DNA of 64,000 nucleotides from a virus. The translations under genes and the position numbers were made by a program. The notes beneath the pieces are model-generated. The model was not told where the DNA came from and did not search any database. It saw only the letters and a program-made list of their open reading frames with translations. How positions within the stretch are numbered: position 1 is the stretch's first letter; every line of letters begins with the position of its first letter. Location of the stretch: the IMG/VR virus record IMGVR_UViG_3300040801_000905, positions 1 to 64,000 of that record, one strand, 5' to 3'. Positions 3,243-63,845 of the stretch are shown here, in pieces.

Positions 3243-3299
3243 GGCAACACCTGCCCCTAATATGATATACTTAAATCTCATCATCAAAGGAGAAACACC

Positions 3300-29016: not shown

Positions 29017-29024
29017 GAGTAAAT

Positions 29025-33013: not shown

Positions 33014-33021
33014 GAGGATAC

Positions 33022-33483: not shown

Positions 33484-33484
33484 A

Positions 33485-34699: not shown

Positions 34700-34713
34700 A
34701 GGAGAACTAACCC

Positions 34714-45948: not shown

Positions 45949-46256
45949 TGGTTCAACGAAATGAAGCGTTGAGGTACACCATATTGGTACTGCTAGCGCT
46001 TTTATGGATTGTTTTGGTAACGGTTTTGTCTGGGTGTGCTACATACGAAGTTTCACGTTGTGATGAAAACGGTATTTGCAGCACGGCAAATATTGTATCG
46101 CCACGTAAATTTAAAAGTATTGCCTTTAGTTACAATGGAGAAAAAAGGACATTTGAGCTTCAGGCAGGTGATGTAGGCACCGATGTCACAGCAATATCCA
46201 CATTGGCCAATGTTATACTCATGCAAGCGGAACAAAATCAAGGAGATGACCAATGA
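45945..46256 (+). CDS. lipoprotein (o-spanin-like or exclusion candidate)
   Basis: Signal peptide with lipobox 'LVTVLSGC'. ATGA start. 103 aa. Confidence 0.6.
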   Translation: MMVQRNEALRYTILVLLALLWIVLVTVLSGCATYEVSRCDENGICSTANIVSPRKFKSIAFSYNGEKRTFELQAGDVGTDVTAISTLANVILMQAEQNQGDDQ

Positions 46257-47176
46257 GCGGCTTGGTCAGGGGCATTAAAAAAGTATTCAAAAAAATAACA
46301 AATTTCGTAAAAAAATATTGGAAGTACATCGTAATTGCGGTGGCTGTTTATTTCACGGCAGGTGTTGCCCTTAGCTATTTCGGAGGTACTGCTAGCTTTG
46401 CTAGTGCTATGCCGGGATTTGGCACAGGGGGGTTGTTCAGCAAAGCCGCTGTAGCAATGGGGTTCCAAGGGTCAGCGGGTGTTGCGTCTGGGCTATCCAT
46501 GACATCAGGCGCATGGGCTGGGGCTGCTGGTGCAGCATACGGCTCTACGTTGACGGCAGCTGAAATAGCAGCAGCTCAGACTGGACTTGGGGTTGGAACG
46601 GCAGGGGTTGGAAGCACAACCGCGTCTGTTGCAGGTGGAGCTGGAACAGCACAGCCTGTAGTTGGTGTGGCAGGAACAGACATTGGTATTGGTGCTGGCT
46701 CTGGCGCATCTGCTGGCACAGCTAATATGTCAACAGCGCTGGGTACGGCGGGGGGTAAAGCAGCCGCAACTACTGGTGCAACTACTGGTGCAATGTCAGC
46801 AACTGATGCGGCCATGAAAGCCATGTCAGGGGCGATGAAAATGCAGGCCGCATCCACGTTGTTACAGACAGCCGGAGGTTTGCTGGCAGACGATCCATAT
46901 AAAGAGCAACACAAGCTTCAGTGGGGGCAGGCATTTGGCGTAGACCGCAGCGGCAACCGTCAATTTGGATGGTCAACAGGAGAGTCACCCGCGGCAGGGC
47001 CAAACCAAGCTAGCCCTTATGCTCAGCAGCCTGCGTACAGCACGCAAGGCAGTGGTGGCAGCATGTTTGCAGCACAAGGTGGCGGGCAAGAGTTTATTGC
47101 TTCACCTCAACAGGCCGCAGCTCAAGCTGCTCCACAGGGCGATTTCATAGTCCAGCCAAAACCAGCGGGAGGCTAA
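46253..47176 (+). CDS. Gly/Ala-rich membrane-anchored internal virion-like protein
   Basis: N-terminal TM helix 'YIVIAVAVYFTAGVALSYFGG' followed by about 250 aa of low-complexity G/A/T/S sequence. Confidence 0.6.
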   Translation: MSGLVRGIKKVFKKITNFVKKYWKYIVIAVAVYFTAGVALSYFGGTASFASAMPGFGTGGLFSKAAVAMGFQGSAGVASGLSMTSGAWAGAAGAAYGSTLTAAEIAAAQTGLGVGTAGVGSTTASVAGGAGTAQPVVGVAGTDIGIGAGSGASAGTANMSTALGTAGGKAAATTGATTGAMSATDAAMKAMSGAMKMQAASTLLQTAGGLLADDPYKEQHKLQWGQAFGVDRSGNRQFGWSTGESPAAGPNQASPYAQQPAYSTQGSGGSMFAAQGGGQEFIASPQQAAAQAAPQGDFIVQPKPAGG

Positions 47177-47177
47177 C

Positions 47178-47942
47178 ATGGCTGAGTTTATTCAACAGGC
47201 CGCAGCTCAAGAGGCACAAACACAGGGATCACCAACGGATTTCTTGTCTCCACAGCAGCAGAACCAAATGGCCGATCAAGCCGCTGCATCAGTAGCGCCT
47301 GAACAACAGCCGCCAGCAGGAATGCCGTCAGGTGCGGGGCTTGGTGCTACACAAGAAAACCCCGTTACAGCACCCGAAGAAGAAGCAAGCCCAGAAGAGC
47401 AAAAGCAGTACGATGATCTCTTTATGCGGGCAATGGCTCTCATTAATGACACAAGGGCAAAGGGTCAAGAGCCGTCACCAGCTGATGCGTTGATCGCATT
47501 GATGTCTGAAAAAGGGAAAGCGGCCCATGAGTCGATTGGCAAAGCCGCTGGCATGGTAATGCAAATCCTTATAGATATGTCAAAGCGCAACGGGGTGGAA
47601 TATTCCGGCCCTGTATTGCAAGAAGTGGCTTTAGACTGTTGTGAAGAGTTGGCTGAAATTGCAAAGCTGTCTGGTGCTATTTCAAACATGCCAGAACAGG
47701 ACAGTCCAGAGTGGGCAAAGCTAATGGAGCTAACGGCACTGGAGGCTGCAAAGCACATCGGAGAATGGATGCTGCAAACAGGGCAGGCAGATCGACAAGG
47801 GCATATGCAAGAAATACAGCAGCAAATGAAACGTGAAGCAGACGCTGGTGAGCTGGAAGATTGGGGCATGGAAGAACTTGATCCGCAAATCAGGCAGCGA
47901 GTGGCTGGAGCAATTCAAGACGGCCAGACAGGAGGCAGATAA
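47178..47942 (+). CDS. acidic internal virion-like protein
   Basis: 254 aa, acidic and helical. Coupled to both neighbours. Confidence 0.55.
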   Translation: MAEFIQQAAAQEAQTQGSPTDFLSPQQQNQMADQAAASVAPEQQPPAGMPSGAGLGATQENPVTAPEEEASPEEQKQYDDLFMRAMALINDTRAKGQEPSPADALIALMSEKGKAAHESIGKAAGMVMQILIDMSKRNGVEYSGPVLQEVALDCCEELAEIAKLSGAISNMPEQDSPEWAKLMELTALEAAKHIGEWMLQTGQADRQGHMQEIQQQMKREADAGELEDWGMEELDPQIRQRVAGAIQDGQTGGR

Positions 47943-48937
47943 TGGGACTCAATTGGTCAGAAGGACTCAAAGCCGCAGGGAAAGGGCTAGGCCAAATGGC
48001 TGGCATGAAAATGCAGGAAGCCGATTGGAAATACAAAGAGATGGCCCAGCAGAACAGGCAGCGTTTTCAAGCTCAAGAAGCTGAAACGCAGCGCGAATTT
48101 CTGAGTGCAGAGAACAAAACCAAGAGAGATTGGGAAACTCCATTTAAGGAAGAAGGATTAGATATTCAGCGCGAAGGTCAAGCGTTGAGACTTGAAGAGT
48201 TGAAACTGCAAGGTTTGCGTTATGAAACATCAGAGCGTCAAACAGATGAGCGGATTGATATTGAGCGCACACGTGCTGAAACAGCTCAGCAGGCACAAGT
48301 TGCGCGTAATGCCGATCAGCGCATGAAAGAATATGAAAGTGACATGAAGCTGTTGCAAGAACGCATTGATGTTTTGCAAGAAAAAACCAGTGGCATTTTG
48401 GTAGACAAAGAAGACCCTGCTTATCAAAAAGATGTGACTGAGCTTCAACAGTTACAAGTGGAACGAGATTCCATTACACAGCAGTACAAATGGGATACTG
48501 ATGTAGTGAAGCTTGGAGCGGAAAAAGAAGCTGCCTACGATGAGGCTAGAGCATTCCTTGGTGAAAGAAGTGAAAAAGCTCATGACCTTAGTATGAAATG
48601 GGCCAAGATGACGGAAGAGCAAAAAGCCAAAGTGCCAGAGCTAGGGGAAGAGCTTCTAAAGACACACCCGAACCCTAATAGCCCAGCGGCAAAAAAGCAG
48701 GCATATGGTGCAGCCATTGACCAAGTATACGGTGGTAGCAGCAAGCTCACGAACCCACAGTCAAAATCTAATCAGGTTAAACCGATAGAAGAAGCCGCGG
48801 TTGAAAAGAAAAAAATGCCAGAAGTTAGTGAACGAGGAAAGGCGGCATTTAATGCATTTCAGAACTATAAAGCACCAGAGAAAGAGCCAGACCAGTTAGC
48901 GCAGCGTGAGTTTATTTCTGAAAGTATGCGCGGATAA
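47942..48937 (+). CDS. coiled-coil internal virion-like protein
   Basis: 331 aa, E/K/Q-rich. TAATG start. Confidence 0.55.
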   Translation: MGLNWSEGLKAAGKGLGQMAGMKMQEADWKYKEMAQQNRQRFQAQEAETQREFLSAENKTKRDWETPFKEEGLDIQREGQALRLEELKLQGLRYETSERQTDERIDIERTRAETAQQAQVARNADQRMKEYESDMKLLQERIDVLQEKTSGILVDKEDPAYQKDVTELQQLQVERDSITQQYKWDTDVVKLGAEKEAAYDEARAFLGERSEKAHDLSMKWAKMTEEQKAKVPELGEELLKTHPNPNSPAAKKQAYGAAIDQVYGGSSKLTNPQSKSNQVKPIEEAAVEKKKMPEVSERGKAAFNAFQNYKAPEKEPDQLAQREFISESMRG

Positions 48938-48977: not shown

Positions 48978-51900
48978 ATGTCAAAAGTAAATTGGGACGA
49001 TTATTCGTCTATTGGTAAGCCGGAAGATGAAGTGGAAGTATCTTCCGCAACAGCAACCCCTGAAGCCACAGATTCTGTTGGTATCAACTGGGAAGATTAC
49101 GCGGATATTGGCAACTCAGTCGGCTTGCCAATTGAAGCCACACCTGAAGCAGAAGTAACTCAACCGGAACAGCCCCCTGTAGAAGATGAGTATGGTGTTG
49201 GAGACTTTGCATCTGACACCGGATCGGCATTTGGTTTAGGTGCAGGAGCCTTAGCAAAAGGGGCTGGAAAGTTATTTGACTGGGTTGGTATGGACGATGC
49301 TGGAGAGGCGTTAAAAAGCATCGGCCAAAGTGCAGTTGAGTATTATTACAAAGGCTTATCAGATGAAGCAAAAGCCGAGATGGACAAAGAGTTTGTCACG
49401 GTCAAAGAGGGGGGGAAATGGTACAACCCATTAGATTGGCAGCGCCCTGAAGACGCTGCTGGTATTTTTGCTGCGTATTTGATGGGTGTTGAGTCCTTAC
49501 CTGCCACCGTAGTTGGAATGGGCGTTGGCGGTAAAATTGGCCAAGGCTTGTATTCTGTTGCCAGCAGAACAGGCACCATGAAAGCACTTCAGGTTGTGGC
49601 TGACAAAGGTGCACGGGCAGCAGCATCTGGGGCCAGCGCAACAAACAAACTAGTTCGCGCAGGAAAGCGTGCTGAAAAAATACAAAAGCTGGCTGGTGGA
49701 GCTGCTGGCGCTACTGGCTATGGCATAGGTGAAGCCCTTCCTGCTGCTGGCATGGCTGGTGTTCAAGTTGAAGAACAAATCATGGCTATGGACCATGATG
49801 ATCTGTACAAAAACTCATCTCATTATCGTGAATATTTTGATGCCACATCGGGCTTAGATATGTCGATGGATGAGCGCATCAATGACGCTAAGCAAAACAT
49901 TGCAGACATAGCTTCATCTGAAGCTGGCTTAGAAGCGGGCATATGGACTGGCATTCTTGGTGCTCCGATGGGTGTGGCATCAGCTCCGCTATTCAATAAG
50001 GCAGTGCCGTGGGCATTTAAGGGAGGTAAGGTTCGTGGGGCGCTTACAGAAGGCGCAGGCGAAGCTATGCAGGAGTTCGCTCAGTCTGGAACAGAGCAAT
50101 ATGTTTCAAATGTTGCTATTAAAGAATATGCAGACGAAACACTGGATGTTACACGAGACGTAGTAAACGCAGCAGTTGGTGGCGCTGTATCTGGTTTTGG
50201 AATGGGCGCAGCATTTGGTGCAGCTGGCACTCCGTCTAAAGGTGAAAATCAAGACGGCGTTCAGCCTGATCCAAAGCTTTTGGCTGATGCTGAAAAAATG
50301 AACGTGTTTGCTCAGCGTGCCGTTGCAGGACTAGTGGAAACTCATGGACGTTCTTTGGAAGAAGCCATGGAACTGGTTCAGCCAGTTATTGACCAATGGG
50401 CACAATCACAAAAAATTCTTCCTGCCATAACTGATTTGCGTTTTATAGAAAAGTATGGGAAAGAGCGGCAGGTTGGAGTAGAAGAAGAGGTTGTTGATGC
50501 ACCAGAAGAACGCACAGAAGAGGGGGGGCAGGAAACAGAACGTGCCGCACAAGAACCCTCAAGAGAGGGTGGGTCCACCGAAGAACCTGCCACCGAAGAA
50601 CCTACCGCAGAAGAGCCTGCCGCAGAAGAACCTGTTGCAGAAGAGCCTGTTGCAGAAGAAAGAGCAGAAGCGCCAGATGTTGGTGTGGCTAGGAGTGTCG
50701 TTGAGACAGCAAAGGAAGAGTTTAAAAAGGCTGATGAGGCTTGGCAGGACAACCTGACTCCAGAAAATGAGCAAAAAATGCTGGAGGCTAGTGCTGCTAG
50801 GTATGAGGCTGAGGCAGAGCTGGATCGTGCAGAGACAATAAGGCGAACTACAAATCCTCCAGATGTTATTGACCTCAAAACAAATGAGTGGGTAACTCCG
50901 AAGGCGGGCACTGTTGATGAGGGTGAGGCTAAGTACCAAGAGCGTGTCAATAAGATGGGCGACAATCACCCGTCAGCCAGAGCTGCAAGAATACGTAAGT
51001 CACTAAAGGATCAGCCGCCTGTTTCACGTGAAACATCTGGCGAAACAACCACTGAAGACGCTGGCATAGACAAAGAAAATATAGAGTCACAACCGCCAGC
51101 AAATGATGCGCGTTATTCGCTCAGACAGAGGCTGAATGAATATGAAAAACGCACCGAAAGCAACGTTACAAAGTTTGTTAGGCGCGGTAAGAAAGAGCTA
51201 ACAAAAGAAGATGCTCAGGGTTGGGCTAACGAAGCTGTCCGGTTAGTTAATGACTGGTATAAAAACCCCATTCCAGAAGAGGCTTGGGAGCTAGACGAAA
51301 AAGGGATGCCAACAAAAATGGTATCTCTTCCAGAAGAAGCGGCTCCAGCTTATGCTGAATTGTTCATCACTAATGAAAAAGTGACAAAAGAACAAATACA
51401 ACAGTGGGCTAAAAACAGAACATTTAAAAAAGGAAGTACGCTTGAAATTGGACGGCAGTTAGCAAAGGCTGCTGCCAAAAATGATATGCAGGCTGTGGCA
51501 GATATTATTCAAAATCTGCCTATACAAGAAAAAAAATCACAAATAAAAGATTTCAATGCTGAATTTTTGCGGGCTTTAGCTATTAAGGCAGACGCCCCAA
51601 GCGAGGTAATCAGAAGCAAGCCTGAAACAATTGAATACCTATTGCGATATAAAGCTGGCTCACAGCTTCCGTTATTTTCGCTTAAAGAGGGTGAGGCTGG
51701 GCCATGGGTAACGGCGTCTAATGGAGAAGGTGATTTATACATTACGCGCCATGGTGCCCGCGCAGGAACGCCGCATAAAACACGACAGTCTTCCAACGAT
51801 TTAGTCTTACGTATTGATGAAGCGCAGCTCAACAAAGATTACACATATTATCTTCTTCAATATTTGCAAAAGAAAATTGCAAGTAGGGCGCGTGGCACGG

Positions 51901-54900
51901 CGCAGCAAGCCATTAGAGCTGGGGATGTTGATAGCGTTTTGACGGAATACTTTGCGAGTCAAAGCCCGCGGTATTCAATTAAAGAGCTAGCGCGAAGAGT
52001 AAAAGCATCTGAGCGCATGGTGGAGTACAACAAGGAAAGAGCAGAAAAAAATGGCCACCTTGTTAAAACACTTATGCGAACAGACTGGAGCGCTGTTGAA
52101 GCAGCAGTAGATGCTGCTACAGCAGGGGCTGTAAGTGCAAATGAAGTACAGGATGCCATCATTGAGTGGATGATGTATGGCACCAACAGCAAATATTTTA
52201 AGCGATGGTTTGGTAAATCAAAAACCACGGATTACTGGGGTGAACCTATACGGTTTTTTCACGGGACTGGATTTGACATTACGGAGTTCTCGCCCAGCCG
52301 TGGGTTTGTTTCATTAACTACTGATCCAGACTTTGCCTCAAAGTTTGCTGATGAGTTTAGGTTGGAGGCCAATCGTCCAACCGTATACCCATTGTATGTT
52401 GCTGCGGAAAAAATATTTGATTACCGCAACAGAAAAATGAGAAGAAGCTTGGTGCGTTACTTGAAGGGGATCAACGCCAAAGATTACGGGTCGTTGATTC
52501 AAGAAGTAAAAGCAGGCAAGTGGACCGCTTTGGAGTCTGCTCCCGTTCAAAAGTTTTTAACTGAGCGAAGCTACGATGCTTTTTGGATGATGGAAGGCGG
52601 GAGCATGAACATTGGTGTTTTTGATCCGCGTAACATCAAGTCCGCAGTAGGCAATGTTGGTACGTTCAGCAGGCAAACAACACATCTGTCTTATGCGCTT
52701 AAAGCGCCGGGGACAGACGATGTTTTTTATTCCACAATTGAGCGATGGGTTGCAGAAAAAATGCCCCCCAGAATGCCTAAAGCAGATTTTGCAGCGGCAT
52801 TTACTACGCCAAAGGCACTGGAAAAAAAGGGTGTAAAGAAAGAAGAAGTGGCCGATATGGGGGTGATGGAATGGGTCAAGAGTTTAGAAGGAGATATTGT
52901 CACAAAAGAACAGGCTCTTGAGTTTGCACGTAAAGCACGTGTTGAATTACGTGAAATAGAAATAAGACCAGATGCACTAGCTATTGATAGATCAACGTTT
53001 GATGAAGCGTCCGCTGTTCAGCAAATTGAAAATATTTACCAGTTTGCACGTGATTTACTTATAGACACACAAGCGGACCCACTGGTTATCGACTCAGTTA
53101 TTGATCGGTTGAAGGAAGAAGGTGTTCGTGCATTAGACGATGTGTTGCCAGCATCACAGGTAGCCAAAATCAGCAAAAAACTGGATCAGGCACGACTGGA
53201 TTTGTGGCAAGCAGAATATTTTGCTGCTCAGCAGAACAGCAACAAAGACCGAATCAAGGTTGGTGATACAACGTATGAAGACTGGACCCTGATTAAAGGG
53301 GCGCGGCCAACATATCGTGAGTTTTTGATGATGATTCCATCATCAGAACAGCGGCCAGAATATAAAACGCGCCACTGGAAAGACACTAATGTTTTGATTC
53401 ATATGCGCCTGCATGGTCAATATGATTCAGATACAGGTAAAACGACATTAATTATCGAAGAAATCCAGTCGGACCTTCATCAGCATGGATATCGTTATGG
53501 GTATACACCGTCTGATTTATCTCAACAGGATTACGATGAAATAAATGAGGCAACTGGCAAGGTGCCAAAAGCACCATTGCAAGAAGCATGGAAGATGGTG
53601 GGCTTAAAGCGCATGATCCGATACGCTGTTGAAAACGGATATGACTCAGTTTCATGGACAACGGGGCAGCACCACCAAGAGCGATACACCTTAAAAGGGA
53701 GCGGCGTAGAGCGCGTTGAACTGGAAACGCGTGAAGCTGGAGACCATACACAGTATCGGGTGGCTTTGTTTGGGGCAACTGATCAGCTGTATGCACCACA
53801 ACCGTGGGTGCGTAAGCATCGTTTGGGTGATTTTATCACCGAAGAGCTGATTGATAAGCTGTTCGCAAAAATAGAAAGCGGTGGGGCAGCAGAGCTATCT
53901 GGCGAAGAGTTGTGGTGGGATGCCAAGGGCATGAAGTGGTTTTATGATAGCGCCCTAAAAAAACAAGCCGCAAAGTACATTAAGAAATGGGGTAGCAAAG
54001 TAGAGCTGCGTCCTGTCGCCATAGTTAATGCAGCAAACGATCAGGTCACAGAAAACTTGTGGACCTTCGACATTACAGAACAAATGCGTGAGTCTGTAAT
54101 GCAAGGCCAGCCAATGTATAGCTTGGCACCAAATGTGGCAGCTGAAATTAGTCGCCGCATAGAGATGGCGCAGCTACGAGCATATATAGATAAACACATT
54201 CATGCAGACACTAAGCCACGCGCAGCTCTTGCGCGGTTAAACGAGGGTGTCGTTCAAGGGTTGTATAGCGAAGAAATATTGCGTCATTCGGGCGCTGTCA
54301 TGCATGTAAAAGACAGGGTAAAAATGCTGATGGAGGTCAGCGAACGGATGCTCGGAACCCCTATCACTACACGCACATCGTTATCTAAAAGGGTAGTAGA
54401 GCAGGAAATTAATCGCATCAAGCGGGAGTGGGAAAATCCTCCGCAAGTATACGTGTGGGATGATTGGACTGGCCTTCCGCATCACATCAAAATGCATGTC
54501 GCAAGCAGGGGCTATCAAGACCGCGTTGAGGGAGTAGTAGACCCACAGGACGGGTCTGTACATATTGTCGCTGAAAACATCGGAACAATGTCCAGATTGC
54601 ATGAAGTGTTTGTTGAAGAAACACTTGGTCATCATGGCTTGCGTTCGTTTTTTGGTGAAAGCCTTATACCTTTTCTTGATGAAGTTATTCCAGTGATGCG
54701 TGACTCAGAAGGCTGGGTTCGTTTGCATACAGAGTATGAGCATCTGCAACCCGCTAATAAAGAGCAGCGCGTTAAACAATTAATGTCAGCGTATGGTTTT
54801 ACCAAGCAAGAGGCAGAGACAGAGTTTGCGGTTGAAGAGCGCACCAAGGAATGGGTAACTGCTGAAGAACTGCTGGCCAAGATGGATGTTGAGCAGGGAA

Positions 54901-57900
54901 TATGGGAAAAGTTTGTAGGCTGGATGCGCGAATTTTTTAGGAGGTTTGGTCTTCTTAACGGTTACACCGAAAATGATTTCCGTACACTTATGGCAAAGGT
55001 CCACAACCACGTCATGAACGGGACAACCCCGCACGCGTGGGGAAAGAGACACAAATCAGGGGTTATGTACGCGGGTCAGGTGGCATACAGTTTATACGGG
55101 GGCAAAGATGGAATTTTGTTGTCGAAGCTAGAAGAGGCCATAAAGAAACTTGACCCTAAATCAAAGCCAAAAAATTACCTGATCAGAATAAAAGGCAGCA
55201 AGGAAGAAAATTGGATGACGTATGGTGCGCCATCTAATTTGCAAGCTGTACAAAGCCTAGGGTTTAGTGAGTCAGAGCTTCAAATGACTGGGGTTACTGA
55301 TTGGCTAAATGAGCAACATCGTGTTGCGCCAAACAAGTCAATTACCAGAGACCAAATACTGGAGGTTTTTAATAAGACCAAGCCAAAACTTAATGTTGTG
55401 TCTCGTACTGGACATTTCCTGTTTCCAACAATTCCTCTGGCAGAAGTTATAGAAGTTGTTCCAAAGGCCGCGAGAAGAGAATTTGACATAGCAAGCGCAC
55501 AAGAAAATCTTGGATATTTTTCGGATCGGCTTACTGAAGTGTTGAATGATCCTGAACAAAAAATACTGAAGGAGCTGTTTAATGCGGCTCCAGATGAGCA
55601 AGTCACCCCTTCTTTTTTATGGTACAGAGGCGCTGTAAATATGCCGTTTGGAGCTGGTGGTGTTCCTAGTTTAGATGAGTTTAAACAGCGTGGAATATCA
55701 ACAGAAGAAATATCTCAAGCGGTTGGATTGCGTAATTTAAACGCGCCCTTAACGAGAGAAAACTCAACGGCAGAAATGCGCGGGATTGTTGCTGATAGAT
55801 TAGTGCAGAGAGCACAAAACAAGGGAGATGAATATATAAGTTATATGTTTAAAGCTATCGTCACATCTCCATATTTTCCTATGAGGGGAGACGTAAAAAT
55901 AAGTGTGGCAATGGATGATGATGGTCTTCCTGTTGCTGCTTACAGAACCTCATCAAGTATGCAAGAAGCTTTTTTAAAGCCGTTTAATGAAGCAATTGAC
56001 AAATATCGGCGTATGAAAAAAGCGGATCAAGAACAATATGAGCAGGCTACTCAAAGAGCTTTAGAAACACAAAGTAATGAACCACCCCTGACTATGCGAG
56101 GCGTGTATCAGCAAGCACCGATTCCTTCAATGGGTGAGTATTTTACTCAGGTGTTGCAAAACATGATTCAGGAAGAGGTAAATGATCGGTTAAGCAACAA
56201 TGAATGGGAAACGATGACGCCAGAAGCTCTATTCCCTAATTTCCCAGCACTAGGGGAAAAAATAATGATTGGGGTTCGTGGTGCAGTATCAGCTACGAAT
56301 AAACCAGTTTTCATTGAACGCTCCGAAGGTTCGGCAAAATCTGCTTCAGACTATGCGCAATACACATTACAAGGCGGGCAGGCTTTAGACGTTATATCTT
56401 TGCAAATGTACGGACGTAACCAAAACACAGGTTATGCACACTACGACAGAGAAGATGTTGTTCATGCCCGTGTAAAAACCCGTGTTGGGCCTAATGGTGA
56501 AAAAATACTTGGCATTGAAGAAGTCCAATCTGACTGGGCAAGCAATTACCGAAAAGCTCACGTAGAAAGAGCAGAATATTACAAGTGGGCAGATAAACAC
56601 GCAGCAACAGTGGTTCGTGCTGCTGTTAAATTGTATCAATCACACGGAATTTACTCTCATGACATGACACCTGAAACAGTCCAGTCATGGAGGAACTGGG
56701 TTGAGAGTGAAAGCCCAGCAGCCGTACAGATACGCGCTCGTATGGCAGCGGACAGAATATCATTATCTTCTCTTCTTGATACAGGGATAGGCTCATTTGC
56801 TGCTATTGAAGCGTTAAGTCAAGTTGATAAAACACTGGCCAGCGAATTAAAAACGGCTGCGCTGGAACTCAAAGGATTAAAGAAAAGTTTTGAATATATG
56901 CCATGGGTTGGCAACTACATGGACTTGATGTTGTCTGCGCTTGTGGGGTATGCGAGGCAAACAGGCTTTGATGTTGTAGCGTGGCCTGAAGGTAGTCACG
57001 TGGCGCGAATATATGGAAGCTATATGGGCGAAGAGGTAAACGGTCTTCGTATCAATCCACAACAAATGGTTGTATACGGTTCAATGACTGGCCCTAATGA
57101 ACCGTCCAACAATACCGCATGGACAGAGATTGCTGGAACGCTTCGCACAGGACAACATCGTGTTTACACGGCAGATTATTTGGGTGAAGTTATTGATGAA
57201 GGTGGGGTAAATGCAGAGGTAGCTAAGGCAGCTGTAGAGGCTCTTCAGGCATGGATAGATAACCCAGATTATCGAAACAACCCTGTAACCAATCAAGAAG
57301 ACCAAACAAAAACATGGAAGTATAAGGTTGAGACTGACATAGGCAATAGATATTTACGGGTTTCTGAGAATGGAGACCTGTTAATTATGTTGCCAGAAGA
57401 GCGTCTATGGAATGCCCGACTGCATAAGCTGTTGTACAACAGGCTTTTGCCTCAAGCAGCACGGGCTATTGCCAAAGATACCAAGGCAATGAAAAAGCGT
57501 GGTGAGGTATCGACTGGCCATGTTTATGTAGAAGACGCTTATAACGTACAGTGGCGCGGCAGAAGGCGGGATGAGAATGTTGATGACTGGGCAAACCCAA
57601 ATGACCACCAAGATGTAGAAATGGAAGGACGCCCGACCCAGTATCCAGAACAACTAGAAGTTCTTATGTATGGCAGAGACGGTGGTTCATACAGAAGAAG
57701 CCTGCGCGACTGGATTGCAAACACTCCAACACGTCAAATACAAAGGTATTCCCAATCTGATGAAGCTGTTCTTATAAACGAGCAGATAGTAAGGGATATG
57801 GGGCAACATACCGTTGAGCTTAAATTAGATGGAATCATTCACACTCATGGAGCTGATTACGATGACATTAATCCTATGGTTGGTATGTTTGACTTCAGTG

Positions 57901-60900
57901 TTGTTGGGCGGGATGGAAACCATTCCGTTTTAATTCCTGTTGGCGACTATAACAACAGTCCAGTTGGGGCAAGATACACTGACTACACACAATACAATGA
58001 TAGTGCCCGTGCGCCCATGCTTTACCGTATGGGTTATCAAATAATGAAATACGTTTGGGGAATTGAAAATCCAAATCCCTTAATCATTTCGCCCAACACA
58101 TGGCGAAGACTAATGGAGCAATTTCGTATTGGTTTGGCAGACTTTGAAGATCATGGCTTTGAAGTGAATGAAAATTGGGTTCAGTTCGGTGAAGAAGTTA
58201 TGAAAAACAACTGGGAGGAATCCAAAGACAATTTTGAAGTAGAGGCAGAAGAAAGATTTAGTCAGATGGAGCCTGAAGAATATGACCCTGTATATTGGGG
58301 TTTTGACTACGACATATATACATCACTTGATGATGGCTTAGAAGATGACGCGCCAGATTTTGAACGTAGATTCAGCCATGAATTTGAATTTGGACTAAGC
58401 CAAGAAACAATTGATTTATTAAAAGAGCACGGCACTTTAAAAGATAAAGGCGCGGCTGCGGTGTTGCTTTCTATTATGTCTGAATCACCGCTGGCCATGG
58501 AACACGCGGACTATCAAGCTGTTGCTGATTTGTGGAATGAACTTGATACACCGCCAAGAGAAATCGCTGAAAAAATACCGCCCGCATACATAGAAAGATA
58601 TGGGGCAGTTGAGCTGGAGGAGAGACAACAAGAGCAAGAGCTTATTCCGTATGGCATCGACAACCCTCAGCGTTCAGAACAGGTTTGGCACGCCATATTT
58701 ATTAATGACAGGGTAAAGGAGCGTGATATTTTCGTACCGTTTTCATTGAGAAATGACGGTAATGAAAAGGCGCGGTCTATTGTTAACCAAAAAATAGCAA
58801 AATCACACAGCCAAATGACAGTGCTGGATCGTGTTACGCATTGGACCCACGTTGTTCATGACAAAATAAAAACAGGTGATCTGATGTGGGGAATGAAGCA
58901 GGGGCTGCTTGATTCTGCCGCAAGTGTTGAACGATGGGAGCGTGAAATATTTGGTGAAGTTCAGGATGCTGCGGTATCTCCATACAAGATGATGCATATG
59001 ACAAAAAATCTTGCATCAGTTATGGCCGCAATATCCAAGGCAGGCATACCGGAAATGCGTGATGGTGTGTTTCAGCCCGTTGATGGAAGAAAGGGTTTTA
59101 TTGAAATCTTTCGCCCTGTTTATGAGCACCCAGATGGTGACTTACAAGAACTGTGGGAAGGCTATGCAGCTGCACGCCGTTCTGATGAATTGCTAGAGCA
59201 GACCAATCCTGACGGAACTGATAGAGAAAAACTATTCAGTCGTGAAGAGGTTGATGAACTGTTGCAGTTGGGTGAAAAATATCCTGTTTTCAAAACGGTG
59301 TTTGATGAGTGGACTGAGTTCAATAATCAGCTGCTAGACCTTGCTGTTAGTGAAGGTGTATTAAGTGCAGTAGAGCGAGACGCTTGGGCTAAGAACGCAT
59401 ACGTCCCCTTCTATCGTGCCATGGAAGAAATAGAAGGCGTTGATCAACGCACTGGTATGGGCCGCACCAAGGCTGGTGTGGCAGGACAGCACCCGCTTAT
59501 TAAACGGTTGCGTGGTAGTAAGCAAAAGCTTGGAAACATCACAGAAAATCTTTGGTTCAACACTGCTAGCTTGATTGACAAGGTTTACAAGAACCATGCA
59601 ATGAATCGTGTTGTTGATATGTTGGATGGTGTGGCGATGAAAGAAATCGACATGCCATGGGAGGCCATCAGAGTAAGTAACAGTCAAATTGCACAAGCAC
59701 TAAAAAGCGCAGGCATTCTTACTGGAGATGCTGAAGCACAAGTACGCGCAATGTCAGCAGAACAGAAGATGACGTGGAATACCATTTTCCGCAGGGTGCG
59801 GCCAACTGCTGATAATGTTGTTGGTGTAATGCGTGAAGGAAAGATGCGTTATTACGAAGTTCAAGATGAACACTTGCTTGTAACCCTAACTGGCATGGGG
59901 GCTGAAAGCATGGTCGGCTTGATGAAGGCTATGGGAATGTCCAAGTCTTTGTTGACGCGCATGATTACCATTGATCCCGGCTTTATGCTTGCCAACTGGT
60001 TACGTGACACGCTGTCTGCGTGGGTTACATCTGACGCCAACTTTATTCCAGTTAAAGATTCTATTGCTGCTATGGGCAGTGTCTTTAAAGAAGACGGTAG
60101 CTTCGTAAAGATGATGATGTCTGGTGCAGGTGGTGGTGGTTTTTACGATCTGACGGGAGGTAACGTAACAAAGGTTCTTGATGAAGAGTTGAGCAAGGGA
60201 GCGCATCGTTGGCTAGGAAAGGCGTGGAAGGGGTATATGAAAATTGGTGCTGCGTCAGAAAACTCCAATCGTCTGGCCATTGCAAATCAAATCCTAAAGA
60301 AAGGTGGCAGTGCTGCGGAAGCCATGTATCAGGCACAAGACATCATGAACTTCACCATGTCTGGTGACTATGCCGCAATACGATTCCTGATTCGTACTGT
60401 CCCATTTTTGAACGCACGGATGCAGGGCTTGTACCGCCTTTACCGCGGTGCTCGTGACAACCCTGTTGGTTTTACCATTAAAGGCGCGGCCCTAATGTCA
60501 GCGTCATTGGCATTGCTGGCTAAGAATTGGGACGATGATGATTATGAGGAAACCGATGAATGGCTGAAAGATCGTGACTGGAGCTTTTATGTAAATGGAA
60601 TGCACTACACCATACCAAAACCGTTTGAGGTTGGGTTGTTGTTTGGCACTCTTCCAGAACGGCTGGTGCGTGCGCTGCTTGGGCGAGATGATTTGGATGT
60701 AAGCAAGGATGCGCTAATGCGCGGCATCGGAGAAACGCTTGCTTTCAATCCTATCCCGCAGCTTATTAAACCAATGTATGAGTTGGGCGCAAACAAGAAC
60801 CTGTTCACAGGAAAAAAGATTGTTAATCTCTCTATGAGCGGTTTGGAATATCCCTATCAAGCCACTCCATGGACCTCCCCTGTAGCCAAACATATTGGTC

Positions 60901-61496
60901 AGGCAGTGCCTGAAGCTTTAGGGCCAGCGCAAAGTCCACTGCGAATCCAACACACCATACGTGCATACACTGGAACGGTTGGTCTGTACACGCTTAATTC
61001 AGTTGACTGGCTGGTGCGTAAAATGGATGGGGACTTGCCCCCACAACCTACGCGCAAGTGGTGGGAAAGACCCGTGATTAATAGAATCGTAAAGGGTCCA
61101 ACAGAAACTACGCGATATAACAAATATGAAGATAAGCTGTATGATTTGATTGATCAATCAAATAAAGCGCAGCGGACGTTTAACATGCTGGCTAAACAAC
61201 AGCGTATTGAAGAAGCCAAAAAAATTGCGGCCAAGCGTAAGCATTTGATTAACCCAGACATCAACGCAGAAACTGGTCAGCCGCGGAACCGTGATGCGGT
61301 TACTCCGCGTACAGAGTTGATGAAGGTGCAAAAAGCTTTACGTGATATCAATGAGGCTCAACGTGCCATCATGAATCACAAGACTATGAGCAGTGATAAG
61401 AAGCGGGCTATGTTGGACAAGCTTACGGCACGCAAGAACAAAATCTTGTCCAATTCAAGTAACCTTATCGAAAAAATCAATCAAATGAAGCCGTAA
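48978..61496 (+). CDS. giant (4172 aa) mosaic virion/ejection protein with an ART-like domain ('polyvalent protein' type)
   Basis: A single uninterrupted ORF. The position is equivalent to T7 gp16. The N-terminus has a Gly-zipper hydrophobic region. Other features: 'WFGKSKTTDYWGEPIRFFHGT...SLT...MMEGG..NIGVFDPRNIKSAVGNVGTF', two copies of an 'EE(I/V)QSD...G(Y/F)D.V.W..G' module, and an approximately 900-aa C-terminal domain ('AYVPFYR', 'ENSNRLA', 'VPFLNARMQG'). Confidence 0.85.
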   Translation: MSKVNWDDYSSIGKPEDEVEVSSATATPEATDSVGINWEDYADIGNSVGLPIEATPEAEVTQPEQPPVEDEYGVGDFASDTGSAFGLGAGALAKGAGKLFDWVGMDDAGEALKSIGQSAVEYYYKGLSDEAKAEMDKEFVTVKEGGKWYNPLDWQRPEDAAGIFAAYLMGVESLPATVVGMGVGGKIGQGLYSVASRTGTMKALQVVADKGARAAASGASATNKLVRAGKRAEKIQKLAGGAAGATGYGIGEALPAAGMAGVQVEEQIMAMDHDDLYKNSSHYREYFDATSGLDMSMDERINDAKQNIADIASSEAGLEAGIWTGILGAPMGVASAPLFNKAVPWAFKGGKVRGALTEGAGEAMQEFAQSGTEQYVSNVAIKEYADETLDVTRDVVNAAVGGAVSGFGMGAAFGAAGTPSKGENQDGVQPDPKLLADAEKMNVFAQRAVAGLVETHGRSLEEAMELVQPVIDQWAQSQKILPAITDLRFIEKYGKERQVGVEEEVVDAPEERTEEGGQETERAAQEPSREGGSTEEPATEEPTAEEPAAEEPVAEEPVAEERAEAPDVGVARSVVETAKEEFKKADEAWQDNLTPENEQKMLEASAARYEAEAELDRAETIRRTTNPPDVIDLKTNEWVTPKAGTVDEGEAKYQERVNKMGDNHPSARAARIRKSLKDQPPVSRETSGETTTEDAGIDKENIESQPPANDARYSLRQRLNEYEKRTESNVTKFVRRGKKELTKEDAQGWANEAVRLVNDWYKNPIPEEAWELDEKGMPTKMVSLPEEAAPAYAELFITNEKVTKEQIQQWAKNRTFKKGSTLEIGRQLAKAAAKNDMQAVADIIQNLPIQEKKSQIKDFNAEFLRALAIKADAPSEVIRSKPETIEYLLRYKAGSQLPLFSLKEGEAGPWVTASNGEGDLYITRHGARAGTPHKTRQSSNDLVLRIDEAQLNKDYTYYLLQYLQKKIASRARGTAQQAIRAGDVDSVLTEYFASQSPRYSIKELARRVKASERMVEYNKERAEKNGHLVKTLMRTDWSAVEAAVDAATAGAVSANEVQDAIIEWMMYGTNSKYFKRWFGKSKTTDYWGEPIRFFHGTGFDITEFSPSRGFVSLTTDPDFASKFADEFRLEANRPTVYPLYVAAEKIFDYRNRKMRRSLVRYLKGINAKDYGSLIQEVKAGKWTALESAPVQKFLTERSYDAFWMMEGGSMNIGVFDPRNIKSAVGNVGTFSRQTTHLSYALKAPGTDDVFYSTIERWVAEKMPPRMPKADFAAAFTTPKALEKKGVKKEEVADMGVMEWVKSLEGDIVTKEQALEFARKARVELREIEIRPDALAIDRSTFDEASAVQQIENIYQFARDLLIDTQADPLVIDSVIDRLKEEGVRALDDVLPASQVAKISKKLDQARLDLWQAEYFAAQQNSNKDRIKVGDTTYEDWTLIKGARPTYREFLMMIPSSEQRPEYKTRHWKDTNVLIHMRLHGQYDSDTGKTTLIIEEIQSDLHQHGYRYGYTPSDLSQQDYDEINEATGKVPKAPLQEAWKMVGLKRMIRYAVENGYDSVSWTTGQHHQERYTLKGSGVERVELETREAGDHTQYRVALFGATDQLYAPQPWVRKHRLGDFITEELIDKLFAKIESGGAAELSGEELWWDAKGMKWFYDSALKKQAAKYIKKWGSKVELRPVAIVNAANDQVTENLWTFDITEQMRESVMQGQPMYSLAPNVAAEISRRIEMAQLRAYIDKHIHADTKPRAALARLNEGVVQGLYSEEILRHSGAVMHVKDRVKMLMEVSERMLGTPITTRTSLSKRVVEQEINRIKREWENPPQVYVWDDWTGLPHHIKMHVASRGYQDRVEGVVDPQDGSVHIVAENIGTMSRLHEVFVEETLGHHGLRSFFGESLIPFLDEVIPVMRDSEGWVRLHTEYEHLQPANKEQRVKQLMSAYGFTKQEAETEFAVEERTKEWVTAEELLAKMDVEQGIWEKFVGWMREFFRRFGLLNGYTENDFRTLMAKVHNHVMNGTTPHAWGKRHKSGVMYAGQVAYSLYGGKDGILLSKLEEAIKKLDPKSKPKNYLIRIKGSKEENWMTYGAPSNLQAVQSLGFSESELQMTGVTDWLNEQHRVAPNKSITRDQILEVFNKTKPKLNVVSRTGHFLFPTIPLAEVIEVVPKAARREFDIASAQENLGYFSDRLTEVLNDPEQKILKELFNAAPDEQVTPSFLWYRGAVNMPFGAGGVPSLDEFKQRGISTEEISQAVGLRNLNAPLTRENSTAEMRGIVADRLVQRAQNKGDEYISYMFKAIVTSPYFPMRGDVKISVAMDDDGLPVAAYRTSSSMQEAFLKPFNEAIDKYRRMKKADQEQYEQATQRALETQSNEPPLTMRGVYQQAPIPSMGEYFTQVLQNMIQEEVNDRLSNNEWETMTPEALFPNFPALGEKIMIGVRGAVSATNKPVFIERSEGSAKSASDYAQYTLQGGQALDVISLQMYGRNQNTGYAHYDREDVVHARVKTRVGPNGEKILGIEEVQSDWASNYRKAHVERAEYYKWADKHAATVVRAAVKLYQSHGIYSHDMTPETVQSWRNWVESESPAAVQIRARMAADRISLSSLLDTGIGSFAAIEALSQVDKTLASELKTAALELKGLKKSFEYMPWVGNYMDLMLSALVGYARQTGFDVVAWPEGSHVARIYGSYMGEEVNGLRINPQQMVVYGSMTGPNEPSNNTAWTEIAGTLRTGQHRVYTADYLGEVIDEGGVNAEVAKAAVEALQAWIDNPDYRNNPVTNQEDQTKTWKYKVETDIGNRYLRVSENGDLLIMLPEERLWNARLHKLLYNRLLPQAARAIAKDTKAMKKRGEVSTGHVYVEDAYNVQWRGRRRDENVDDWANPNDHQDVEMEGRPTQYPEQLEVLMYGRDGGSYRRSLRDWIANTPTRQIQRYSQSDEAVLINEQIVRDMGQHTVELKLDGIIHTHGADYDDINPMVGMFDFSVVGRDGNHSVLIPVGDYNNSPVGARYTDYTQYNDSARAPMLYRMGYQIMKYVWGIENPNPLIISPNTWRRLMEQFRIGLADFEDHGFEVNENWVQFGEEVMKNNWEESKDNFEVEAEERFSQMEPEEYDPVYWGFDYDIYTSLDDGLEDDAPDFERRFSHEFEFGLSQETIDLLKEHGTLKDKGAAAVLLSIMSESPLAMEHADYQAVADLWNELDTPPREIAEKIPPAYIERYGAVELEERQQEQELIPYGIDNPQRSEQVWHAIFINDRVKERDIFVPFSLRNDGNEKARSIVNQKIAKSHSQMTVLDRVTHWTHVVHDKIKTGDLMWGMKQGLLDSAASVERWEREIFGEVQDAAVSPYKMMHMTKNLASVMAAISKAGIPEMRDGVFQPVDGRKGFIEIFRPVYEHPDGDLQELWEGYAAARRSDELLEQTNPDGTDREKLFSREEVDELLQLGEKYPVFKTVFDEWTEFNNQLLDLAVSEGVLSAVERDAWAKNAYVPFYRAMEEIEGVDQRTGMGRTKAGVAGQHPLIKRLRGSKQKLGNITENLWFNTASLIDKVYKNHAMNRVVDMLDGVAMKEIDMPWEAIRVSNSQIAQALKSAGILTGDAEAQVRAMSAEQKMTWNTIFRRVRPTADNVVGVMREGKMRYYEVQDEHLLVTLTGMGAESMVGLMKAMGMSKSLLTRMITIDPGFMLANWLRDTLSAWVTSDANFIPVKDSIAAMGSVFKEDGSFVKMMMSGAGGGGFYDLTGGNVTKVLDEELSKGAHRWLGKAWKGYMKIGAASENSNRLAIANQILKKGGSAAEAMYQAQDIMNFTMSGDYAAIRFLIRTVPFLNARMQGLYRLYRGARDNPVGFTIKGAALMSASLALLAKNWDDDDYEETDEWLKDRDWSFYVNGMHYTIPKPFEVGLLFGTLPERLVRALLGRDDLDVSKDALMRGIGETLAFNPIPQLIKPMYELGANKNLFTGKKIVNLSMSGLEYPYQATPWTSPVAKHIGQAVPEALGPAQSPLRIQHTIRAYTGTVGLYTLNSVDWLVRKMDGDLPPQPTRKWWERPVINRIVKGPTETTRYNKYEDKLYDLIDQSNKAQRTFNMLAKQQRIEEAKKIAAKRKHLINPDINAETGQPRNRDAVTPRTELMKVQKALRDINEAQRAIMNHKTMSSDKKRAMLDKLTARKNKILSNSSNLIEKINQMKP
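50580..50660 (+). repeat. 5 x 15-nt in-frame tandem repeat (EEP[AT/TA/AA/VA/VA])
   Basis: gaagaacctgccacc / gaagaacctaccgca / gaagagcctgccgca / gaagaacctgttgca / gaagagcctgttgca. Confidence 0.9.
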
Positions 61497-61570: not shown

Positions 61571-62434
61571 TTATAGTTCATCGCGTTCAATGTCAGTGCG
61601 TTTGGCCCAATTTGGCCTTGTAATTGGCACAACGTGGTTTGTGTATCCAGCCCACTCATCGTTCATCATGCAGAAATTTATTGCTGCCATGGAAGAGGTG
61701 TAGCTGTCACGTCCTGCTTCAATGTCTTCATCGGTTAGCTCATAAAATGCCATAAGCCGCGGGTCTGCCTCAAACGTATTACGCTTGTCAGGCTTTTCCA
61801 TTACGCCAAAAACAAACCTCTGCACTGGCTTGCCACAAGCGCGAACGCCGTCTATGTAGAAAGCAGCTTGTATGTGGTATGAGAAGTTAGCAATAGCTTT
61901 GGAAAACCCATACGGGCTTGCGTCTATTGCTGTCTTCAAATCAAAAATAGTTCCTGATTCTTCGTCATACCAGTCAAGCTTGCATTTGCAGCGCATTGCA
62001 TAAACCGGATCATCCCACATAAATACAGGCTGTGGTACGCCGCGTTTCATGAGGTCAGCCATGACTGGGTTGTTGCGTACTGCCAAGGCTGTGGTTAAAG
62101 CTTCTTTGTGGGCGTCATTAGATACCAGTGCTACATGATTAGCTTTGGCGTGCTTAACCAAAGAAGCCCATTCTTCGCGTCCAGCTTTGGTGCGCTTATT
62201 GATGTCGGGAGCAATGATGAACTGCTTGTCGAACTCTTCTGGTTCAAAGATCAAGCAGTCCACCATGCTTCCCATTAGCAGAGCCGCTGTCGGCTCGGCA
62301 GGTGGCGAATCCAAATATGAGCGGAGGTGCCATGGTGTTTTGGCGTCAATAATTTTCAGCCATGTAGAGCTTACCGCGGTTCTATCCGCATGATATTCGG
62401 GGTTGGATACCCCTAATTGCATTCCAGTTTTCAT
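61571..62434 (-). CDS. RecE-like PD-(D/E)XK exonuclease (DUF3799-type)
   Basis: 'GTIFDLKTA' (D-x-K) and 'YHIQAAFYIDG' motifs. Paired with recT upstream. Confidence 0.7.
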   Translation of the reverse strand: MKTGMQLGVSNPEYHADRTAVSSTWLKIIDAKTPWHLRSYLDSPPAEPTAALLMGSMVDCLIFEPEEFDKQFIIAPDINKRTKAGREEWASLVKHAKANHVALVSNDAHKEALTTALAVRNNPVMADLMKRGVPQPVFMWDDPVYAMRCKCKLDWYDEESGTIFDLKTAIDASPYGFSKAIANFSYHIQAAFYIDGVRACGKPVQRFVFGVMEKPDKRNTFEADPRLMAFYELTDEDIEAGRDSYTSSMAAINFCMMNDEWAGYTNHVVPITRPNWAKRTDIERDEL

Positions 62435-62660
62435 GGTCTACTACCTCATTGATGATGTTGTCTTCAGAATCAGTGTCTGAATCGGTTGTGATCGCTCTTC
62501 CGTCAAGATGCCACTGGCGATAGATGTGCCCTTGCAGGATAAAACCTGAAGCAACAGTACCCCTCACCTCGTGGATGAAAGCTATACAGCCCCCCTCTGT
62601 GCAGTATTTTCTTCCTGCTTGGAGTCGGACTGTCCCAAGTGAGACGATCTTTCTTTCCAT
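62382..62660 (-). CDS. hypothetical overlapping ORF (doubtful)
   Basis: 92 aa. Overlaps the recT 3' end by 79 nt and the exonuclease 5' end by 53 nt. No good alternative start. Confidence 0.25.
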   Translation of the reverse strand: MERKIVSLGTVRLQAGRKYCTEGGCIAFIHEVRGTVASGFILQGHIYRQWHLDGRAITTDSDTDSEDNIINEVVDHENWNAIRGIQPRISCG

Positions 62661-63693: not shown

Positions 63694-63720
63694 TAAAAAA
63701 ACCCCCTCCGAAGAGGGGGT
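63694..63720 (-). terminator. rho-independent terminator (leftward transcripts)
   Basis: ACCCCCTC pairs with GAGGGGGT over a cgaa loop. On the minus strand it is followed by T7 (the plus-strand A-run at 63694-63700). Confidence 0.75.
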
Positions 63721-63812
63721 TAGGCACACTCTCATCATCAAAGAGGGTACTGACTAATGTCTCGTTGGAAGACATCACGGCTAGTATACAAGATATTGTG
63801 TCGAAAAAGAAG

Positions 63813-63845
63813 AAACCCCCCAAGATGTGGGGGGTTTCATTTACT
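63813..63845. terminator. bidirectional rho-independent terminator
   Basis: AAACCCCCC pairs with GGGGGGTTT (63813-63837). T-rich tails lie on both strands. Confidence 0.7.

Follow-up and report, generated by a model that had tools for sequence, protein, structure and literature searches.

A very large cysteine-free protein at the end of a podovirus virion block is probably a phage-type polyvalent and ejection protein

Results

A single gene for 4172 amino acids closes the virion block

In a 64,000-nucleotide (nt) stretch of viral DNA (IMG/VR record IMGVR_UViG_3300040801_000905, positions 1 to 64,000; hereafter the window), one open reading frame (ORF) at 48978-61496 on the plus strand runs from ATG to stop without interruption and encodes 4172 amino acids (aa). 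Having analysed this gene and its product, here called the giant protein, we conclude that it is probably a phage-type polyvalent protein and that it doubles as an internal-virion (ejection) protein, the largest and last one encoded by a podovirus that belongs with PTXU04 and Vibrio phage 1.232.O. It is a very large new member of an already described class and not a new kind of system.

The chance that 4172 sense codons remain open is, by our own arithmetic, about (61/64)^4172, or roughly 1e-87, and the G+C content and skew of the gene are those of the adjoining genes. The start codon is supported by a metagenomic relative, P0023, which begins with the same N-terminus. Three independent metagenomic relatives (L004, 3991 aa, from IMG/VR; P0023, 4260 aa; P0024, 4555 aa) are collinear with the giant protein and 41-47% identical to it over aa ~900-4170; given this common architecture, the gene is not an assembly artefact or a fusion. 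The original prediction, a reading of the bare sequence, had proposed one 12.5-kb gene for a protein about three times as large as T7 gp16, and the ORF and its collinear relatives uphold this (4172 aa against 1318 aa, a factor of 3.2). Megablast of the gene against phage genomes returned no match, an exact-sequence lookup of the protein found no record, and an NCBIfam scan found no family. Sequence searches of the PDB with the whole protein, a C-terminal profile and a module profile gave nothing relevant, and relaxed Pfam scans of four unassigned slices gave noise-level matches only. Single-domain queries of an index of 5.8 billion proteins were insensitive (one match for module A and three for the N-terminal domain profile, both described below), and an exhaustive HMMER search was used instead.

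All genes upstream lie on the plus strand, and the giant gene comes last in a block that includes the genes for the large terminase (5868-7340), portal (14084-16510), capsid and tail fibres; a place next to late or virion genes is one of the marks of polyvalent proteins. Immediately before it stand three translationally coupled genes (46253-47176, 47178-47942 and 47942-48937, plus strand). In the first product a Gly/Ala/Ser-rich region comes after an N-terminal transmembrane helix, the second product weakly matches PTXU04_00023 at the syntenic position (E 0.002) and the third is of a charged coiled-coil type; none of the three has a Pfam or PHROG family. The portal is closest to that of Vibrio phage 1.232.O (36%), with four Escherichia phage records among the portal matches. 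The phage thus belongs to the lineage of PTXU04, a podovirus (PMC6563267), and Vibrio phage 1.232.O, and not to the T7-like phages. The same layout as in the window is found in PTXU04, Vibrio 1.232.O and Thalassomonas BA3, where three or four small genes precede a gene for 2197-3292 aa with which the virion block ends, in agreement with the gp16-like position after three coupled genes that had been predicted.

The C-terminal domain is constant among relatives and carries LPD38

The C-terminal domain contains the Pfam family LPD38 (PF18857) at aa 3853-4033 (nt 60534-61076), with an E value of 3.8e-34 and 118.9 bits against a cutoff of 27. LPD38 has been reported solely from polyvalent proteins of the phage type (PMC5512222). 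Just before it lies the single hydrophobic helix of the domain (aa 3829-3848), so that the predicted C-terminal domain of about 900 aa with hydrophobic segments is recovered. This is the best conserved part of the protein: 50-88% of its positions are common to at least three of the four proteins compared, against 4-50% in the middle. By tblastn, 52 phage records have the domain at the C-terminal ends of giant proteins; their hosts include Vibrio, Escherichia, Aeromonas, Shewanella, Thalassomonas, Pelagibacter, Bacillus and cyanobacteria. One such protein is BA3_0002 (E 2e-29, 26.6% identity over 561 aa), and Hardies et al. list BA3 gene 0002 as a member of the T7 IVP-D family (PMC4819975).

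An AlphaFold2 model of the domain (predicted local distance difference test score, pLDDT, 77.8; predicted template modelling score, pTM, 0.71) gave 73 structural matches in BFVD at E<=1e-3, with template modelling (TM) scores of up to 0.85, to the last chunks of phage polyvalent proteins carrying RelA/SpoT, methylase or lytic transglycosylase cargo. Against the PDB there was no Foldseek match at E<=1e-3 and no profile match. Short LPD38 homologues (784-1400 aa) were considered as stand-alone versions of the domain and rejected; at least P0014 is cut by a contig end.

The close relatives have aa ~1005-4167 in common with the giant protein and differ in their N-terminal cargo (for example InPase); more distant LPD38 giants carry helicase, methylase or GNAT domains as cargo instead. 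Across the relatives, then, the cargo varies and the C-terminal domain stays, as expected of the mosaic that had been proposed. The features of the gene are collected in Table 1.

Table 1. Features of the giant gene and of the genes coupled to it upstream (window coordinates)
Feature	Position (nt)	Strand	Description
Three translationally coupled upstream genes	46253..48937	+	307, 254, 331 aa; candidate partner ejection proteins
Whole giant gene	48978..61496	+	4172 aa; probable polyvalent/ejection-type protein; 0 Cys; 12.5 kb
Tandem N-terminal motif	48990..49112	+	NWDDYSSIG (aa 5-13), NWEDYADIG (aa 37-45)
N-terminal domain	49200..50417	+	aa ~75-480; Gly/Ala-rich, amphipathic; homologue of N-terminal domain of N4-type virion RNA polymerase
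Acidic low-complexity linker	50475..50672	+	aa ~500-565; 5x EEPxx at aa 535-559
Lineage-specific region	50673..52199	+	aa 566-1074; x[FY]S[LI] motifs at aa 712, 899, 998
ART-PolyVal ADP-ribosyltransferase domain (predicted)	52200..52685	+	aa ~1075-1236; candidate triad H1095, Y1140, D1200
Module A	52686..54182	+	aa 1237-1735; helical FYS...GVKxEE subdomain and enzyme-like core
Zincin-like metallopeptidase-type domain	54183..55127	+	aa ~1736-2050; EETLGH (aa 1880-1885) replaces HExxxH
Module B	55248..57074	+	aa ~2091-2699; diverged second copy with ~300-aa insertion (aa ~2150-2450)
Unassigned, poorly conserved region	57075..58727	+	aa 2700-3250; ends in conserved junction motif VPFSL (aa 3254)
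Conserved C-terminal domain	58728..61493	+	aa ~3251-4172 (~920 aa); mostly alpha-helical

An ADP-ribosyltransferase domain with an intact candidate triad

The ADP-ribosyltransferase (ART)-like domain of the original prediction corresponds to the Pfam family ART-PolyVal (PF18760), matched at aa 1087-1230 above its cutoff (E 4.4e-13, 50.6 bits against 31.2) over profile positions 3-140 of 140. H1095 (in FFHGT), Y1140 (PLYV) and D1200 (SYDAF) align with the HGT, vYl and yDg columns of 25 family copies. In ART-PolyVal (Tox-ART-HYD2) the catalytic configuration is H-Y-D, with H on strand 1, Y on strand 2 and D on strand 5 (PMC5512222). Judged by this alignment, the giant protein keeps the H-Y-D residues, and the domain is a predicted ADP-ribosyltransferase; it is the only domain of the protein in which a catalytic site is both recognisable and intact. 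A second ART, of the R-S-E type, was considered within the insertion of module B (WYRG ... TSSS ... QEE) and dropped, as no profile supported it.

A widespread, enzyme-like module is present twice

Module A directly follows the ART domain. The motifs of its core are YTLPGG-NYRE, HW-PNVLAH-R, IEEIQSDWHQ, VPDAPF, GYD-AWTTG and GGEGMKGFYD. A hidden Markov model (HMM) of the module family, built without the window sequence, matches aa 1237-1735 at E values of 3e-35 and 1e-58. The same HMM matches module B at aa 2091-2527 (E 4e-10) together with a collinear weak piece at 2647-2679, and a second HMM matches aa 2448-2699 (E 1.5e-24); P0001 bridges the two copies, and a second copy is also found in all three relatives (L004, P0023 and P0024). 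Self-BLAST of the giant protein revealed collinear short motifs and no long internal repeat, so that the family HMMs were needed to demonstrate the duplication. Direct similarity between the copies is at motif level only (EEIQSD at 1494, EEVQSD at 2514), from which we conclude that the duplication is ancient. The claim that a module of roughly 500-700 aa occurs twice therefore stands at the level of family HMMs, whereas direct comparison of the copies yields motifs alone.

An exhaustive HMMER search with aa 1250-2449 retrieved 7938 cluster representatives at E<=1e-3, most of them matching the module-A core. The module-bearing proteins are mostly 2000-7500 aa long, often with two or three copies each, and in two of the six that were scanned with Pfam (P0026, P0041 and others), of 1718 and 3239 aa, ART-PolyVal is found two to five times beside multiple copies of the module. 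The module itself goes unrecognised in Pfam, in NCBIfam and in sequence searches of the PDB. As far as we found, the family is very widespread and has neither a Pfam entry nor a solved structure; among the domains of polyvalent proteins it appears to be a major one that has not been catalogued.

In an alignment of 15 diverse module sequences 28 columns do not vary, and polar residues fill many of these (YRE, H, R, E-QSD-HQ, P-AP, W, GM-YD, K), which suggests that the module is an enzyme. An AlphaFold2 model of module A (pLDDT 77, pTM 0.69) was compared with the PDB by Foldseek, and nearly all top matches were GNAT acetyltransferases, weak ones (E 0.01-0.1, TM score <=0.34). The module profile has no sequence match to any PDB chain and the canonical Q/RxxGxG/A acetyl-CoA loop is not evident in it; we regard the GNAT-like fold suggested by the model as no more than a lead. 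A Walker A motif was considered for DTGKT (aa 1485-1489) and rejected, since the upstream glycine is missing.

A variant zincin-like domain lies between the two module copies

With the zincin-like domain as query, phmmer finds domains with HExxGHxGLR in other giant proteins. The EExxGH form of the window is kept in L004, P0023 and P0024. An HMM of the domain matches Vibrio 1.232.O gp28 (7e-21) and PTXU04 gp25 (2e-18), both of which have HExxxH, and more weakly the virion RNA polymerase (vRNAP) of phage IME11 at aa 2158-2330, a region that holds HELVH. Iyer et al. described the HEXXXH clade and placed the N4 MPTase in the HELVH region (PMC5512222). No intact HExxH or HExxxH occurs anywhere in the giant protein, which thus lacks a motif that is common, though not universal, in polyvalent proteins.

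The N-terminal part resembles the membrane-binding domain of N4-type polymerases

The N-terminal domain (NTD) matches phrog_2206 ("virion RNA polymerase") in PHROG with an E value of 6.7e-12 and N4-like vRNAP genes by tblastn with 5e-5; it is 31% identical to aa 246-431 of the IME11 vRNAP. An HMM made from three polyvalent NTDs alone matches aa 113-499 of the same vRNAP at 2e-14. Judged by these comparisons, the NTD is homologous to the membrane-binding NTD of N4-type vRNAPs. In N4 gp50 this domain binds lipid, has predicted membrane-spanning helices and is proposed to lead ejection, and a low-complexity linker of ~100 aa comes after it (PMC13434306). The EEPxx linker of the giant protein is its analogue. 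Iyer et al. found no relatives of the N-terminal region of N4 vRNAP outside vRNAPs (PMC5512222).

The remaining elements that had been predicted for this part are all present: the NW(D/E)DY..IG motif is duplicated (at aa 5 and aa 37), small-xxx-small runs at aa 78-417 make up the Gly/Ala "zipper" region, and the acidic linker holds five EEPxx repeats. P0023 and P0024 have their own versions of the duplicated motif, as do the distant LPD38 giants (LLNLSFLG and LLDVSFLG in Vibrio 1.232.O gp28; DLS...DFSGIG in PTXU04 gp25). The duplicated motif of these only distantly related giants is short and hydrophobic/acidic, lies at the extreme N-terminus (7060-7200 in L001, 10351-10500 in L002) and differs in its letters from lineage to lineage. 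It may be a targeting or docking signal, targeting to the capsid or core being a guess.

The lineage-specific region that follows has no Pfam or PDB match; it is partly common with P0023 and absent from L004 and P0024. The other unassigned region, aa 2700-3250, has no Pfam match. Short x[FY]S[LI] motifs were observed at module borders (aa 712, 899, 998, 1250, 1713 and 3254; nt ~51111, 51672, 51969, 52725, 54114 and 58737), of which the two at aa 1713 and aa 3254 recur in all four of the full-length relatives. Such motifs may cap domains or mark sites of processing.

The protein contains no cysteine

None of the 4172 residues is cysteine, whereas the 35 remaining ORFs of the window contain 0.91% of it (P ~3e-17). 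Cysteine is also lacking in L004, P0023, Vibrio gp28, PTXU04 gp25 and BA3_0002, in every LPD38 giant checked, in T7 gp15 and T7 gp16, and in the N4-like vRNAP of IME11 (0 in 3450 residues). Of 150 module-bearing giants, 98 have none, and the whole set holds 193 cysteines in 467,846 residues. Near-absence of cysteine marks proven or suspected ejected phage proteins (the giant protein of the window; L001, L002, L004, L006, L007, L008), and no description of such a signature was found in the literature searched. It would fit proteins that are stored, and moved unfolded, through the tail and the oxidising periplasm.

Elsewhere in the window, four consecutive ORFs at 31559-36669 (484, 153, 404 and 651 aa) are also free of cysteine and have no clear family, one of them (33485-34699) with a weak hint of RHS repeats. 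A 409-aa ORF at 18106-19335, taken as the capsid gene without a family match, lacks cysteine as well.

Neighbouring genes

Downstream, at 61571-63577 on the minus strand and convergent with the giant gene, lie genes for a RecE-like PDDEXK exonuclease (DUF3799, phrog_412) and a RecT annealing protein; a RecT-type neighbourhood also adjoins the relatives in L004 and L005. Directly 3' of the giant gene we found no convincing intrinsic terminator. Two strong G+C-rich hairpins with T-runs, terminator-like on the minus strand, are at 63700-63840, just past the start of the RecT gene.

Between the gene for a 1231-aa virion protein and the candidate ejection-protein genes, four small ORFs occupy 44808-46256. 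They include a transmembrane and coiled-coil protein, a DUF1353 protein (45514-45948, E 1e-23), a 116-aa ORF with an H..G.A.D-like motif and no Pfam match, and a lipoprotein-like ORF with an LSGC lipobox, and together look like a lysis/spanin-type cassette inside the virion block. Two adjacent, overlapping and paralogous tail-fibre genes (28995-29963 and 29948-30928) both match phrog_4176.

Discussion

Polyvalent and probably ejected: the evidence from homologues

Several unrelated domains (ART-PolyVal, the zincin-like domain, a module in two copies, an N4-type NTD and LPD38) stand in one chain, and two of them, ART-PolyVal and LPD38, are families of Iyer et al. (2017) that score above their curated cutoffs; the original prediction had invoked the polyvalent-protein concept of these authors, and here it holds. 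From homologues, we infer that the giant protein is packaged and injected. The phi24B protein gp47, which combines LPD5, LPD1, LPD38 and a metallopeptidase, is abundant in purified virions by proteomics, invisible by cryo-EM and proposed as an encapsidated ejection protein (bioRxiv 10.64898/2026.04.10.717836). Knockdown of PTXU04 gp25, which has the same C-terminal domain, causes a large drop in plating efficiency (PMC11879866). N4 gp50 is ejected and anchored in the membrane via its NTD (PMC13434306), and for H66 gp60 a place in the virion is proven (PMC4819975). The case for ejection is strengthened by the N4-gp50-type NTD, by an LPD38 protein in phi24B virions and by the lack of cysteine.

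The closest likeness is to the LPD38 giants (phi24B gp47, PTXU04 gp25, Vibrio 1.232.O gp28 and BA3_0002), single giant polypeptides that end the virion block, with a HExxxH-type peptidase domain upstream of LPD38, variable enzymatic cargo and no cysteine; the C-terminal domain is 26-36% identical over ~560-655 aa to those of PTXU04, Vibrio 1.232.O and BA3. The protein of the window differs from them by its size, by an N4-gp50-type NTD that was not detectable in the others tested, by its two ART-associated modules, by the EExxGH form of the peptidase motif and by the lack of DarB-like cargo: whereas Vibrio 1.232.O gp28 has DarB-like helicase and methylase domains, we found no Pfam match to a DarB-like SF2 helicase or N6-adenine methylase in the giant protein, and no DPPY/NPPY or DEAH-type motifs.

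With N4 gp50 and the vRNAPs of the Schitoviridae it has in common the N-terminal ~390 aa followed by a low-complexity linker, a length in the range of ~3500-4200 aa, the lack of cysteine, a zincin-like domain and a gene that ends the virion block, downstream of genes for smaller ejection proteins. It differs from gp50 in having no RNA polymerase domain and a C-terminal domain without detectable similarity, and in portal and gene order the phage is otherwise unlike N4. In T7 the gene for gp16 likewise follows smaller, coupled genes for internal proteins and is the last and largest of them; gp16 has an alpha-helical C-terminal domain and lacks cysteine, and published transitive homology via BA3_0002 and the phiRIO-1/F116 groups connects the two. 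However, we found no direct similarity to gp16 by profile or fold, and no lytic transglycosylase domain, and the giant protein is three times larger, with enzymatic domains that are probably directed to the cytoplasm. Finally, T4 Alt offers a parallel in concept, as an ART that travels with the DNA and modifies host proteins when infection has only just begun. That protein, of ~680 aa, belongs to the R-S-E clade, has a single function and is packaged via a capsid-targeting sequence, whereas the ART of the window forms part of a giant chain and falls in the H-Y-D (Tox-ART-HYD2) clade.

A proposed path from capsid to cytoplasm

We hypothesize that the giant protein is expressed late, with the virion genes, and packed in the capsid, the LPD38-containing C-terminal domain being the part needed for assembly and ejection. 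At infection it would leave through the tail unfolded, as beads on a string, together with the three small proteins encoded upstream. The N4-gp50-type NTD would then insert into or bind the inner membrane, with the EEPxx linker as a flexible tether. On the cytoplasmic side the cargo would refold, so that ART-PolyVal could ADP-ribosylate host targets and both copies of the enzyme-like module could act on their substrates; as one metal ligand of the peptidase-like domain is altered, that domain may either process the chain at the x[FY]S[LI] junctions or be a non-catalytic scaffold. A chain without cysteine would stay free of disulfides in storage and during its passage through the oxidising periplasm. 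All four steps are our proposal; what the analysis shows is the ORF with its domain identities, homologies and synteny, and the statistics on cysteine.

Weighing the alternatives

Several points weigh against reading the giant protein as a polyvalent ejection protein. Its presence in virions and its entry into the cell are deduced by analogy, and a virion gel of PTXU04 named four abundant bands only, gp25 not being among them (PMC6563267). By hhalign, a profile of 22 C-terminal sequences gave a probability of 0.2% with T7 gp16 and of 0.6% with aa 2100-3450 of the IME11 vRNAP, and Foldseek with the C-terminal domain against the PDB was negative. The solved models of gp16 are partial and represent the post-ejection state, and for this reason the Foldseek miss against gp16 is weak evidence; as direct comparisons are negative, the link to the IVP-D family depends on where the gene lies and on transitive searches that others have published. 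About half of the giant protein is without an assigned activity, self-processing is doubtful because the peptidase motif lacks its first histidine, and the GNAT-like reading of the module is based on Foldseek E values of at least 0.01, without support from sequence.

The main rival is a mostly structural role, as an ejectosome or internal-core protein like gp16 whose middle would be a spacer or channel and whose ART would be a minor passenger, with no multi-effector function. Conservation is by far the highest in the C-terminal domain while the middle evolves fast, PTXU04 gp25 is required for plating on a laboratory strain and has no Pfam domain except LPD38, and the peptidase motif of the giant protein is degenerate, all of which favour such a role; yet the ART catalytic triad is kept, the invariant columns of module A hold across distant proteins, and relatives swap in enzymatic cargo (InPase, helicase, methylase, GNAT, RelA/SpoT), and we consider an essentially structural protein unlikely. 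A good deal less probable again is a protein that is never packaged or injected and acts late in the cytoplasm of the producing cell, modifying DNA or host proteins or blocking defence. That packaging of the giant protein is argued from its homologues, and that the PTXU04 gel analysis did not report gp25, would agree with it, but the gene ends the virion operon and is coupled to genes for small transmembrane and coiled-coil proteins, an N4-type injection domain is present, an LPD38 homologue has been found in virions, and the protein is cysteine-free like proven ejected proteins. As for a diverged N4-type vRNAP, the case that the original prediction had set against itself, we give it next to no credence: the matches to phrog_2206 and, by tblastn, to vRNAP genes that point to it are limited to vRNAP aa ~113-499, that is, to the NTD. 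Outside the NTD, no T7-like RNA polymerase domain was found with Pfam, PHROG, PDB sequence or tblastn searches, hhalign likewise gave no polymerase-core or C-terminal match, and the centre of the protein is filled by other domains, namely ART, both module copies and the peptidase-like domain.

Within the reading of the giant protein as a polyvalent ejection protein, we venture, tentatively and with more doubt than confidence, that it is a hybrid delivery chassis, in which a membrane-inserting NTD of the N4 gp50 type and an LPD38 C-terminal domain bracket swappable cargo. N4 vRNAPs and LPD38 giants would then share an ancestral injected carrier, near-total avoidance of cysteine would be a general hallmark by which phage proteins that pass through the tail could be predicted, and the x[FY]S[LI] junctions and the duplicated N-terminal motif would be processing and targeting signals. 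If so, the RNA polymerase of the Schitoviridae is replaced here by an ART and two copies of an unnamed, very widespread, enzyme-like module whose core is possibly GNAT-like.

Significance

Genes for large polyvalent proteins rank with the biggest that phages have and with those that are understood least, and few polyvalent or ejection giants come with experimental data: phi24B gp47 (found in virions), PTXU04 gp25 (essential) and N4 gp50. What is new in the protein of the window is its N4-type NTD, the identity of the repeated module and how widely it is spread, a peptidase domain with a variant motif, the motifs at the junctions and at the N-terminus, and the lack of cysteine as a signature. 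It joins two groups that have been studied separately, through an injection domain of the N4 gp50 type and a C-terminal domain of the LPD38 type, and it offers experimental handles in an ART with an intact candidate triad, a module found in thousands of giants, a peptidase-like domain with a natural ligand substitution and the absence of cysteine. If the signature and the chassis idea are true, they would aid the prediction of injected proteins and anti-host effectors straight from phage genomes.

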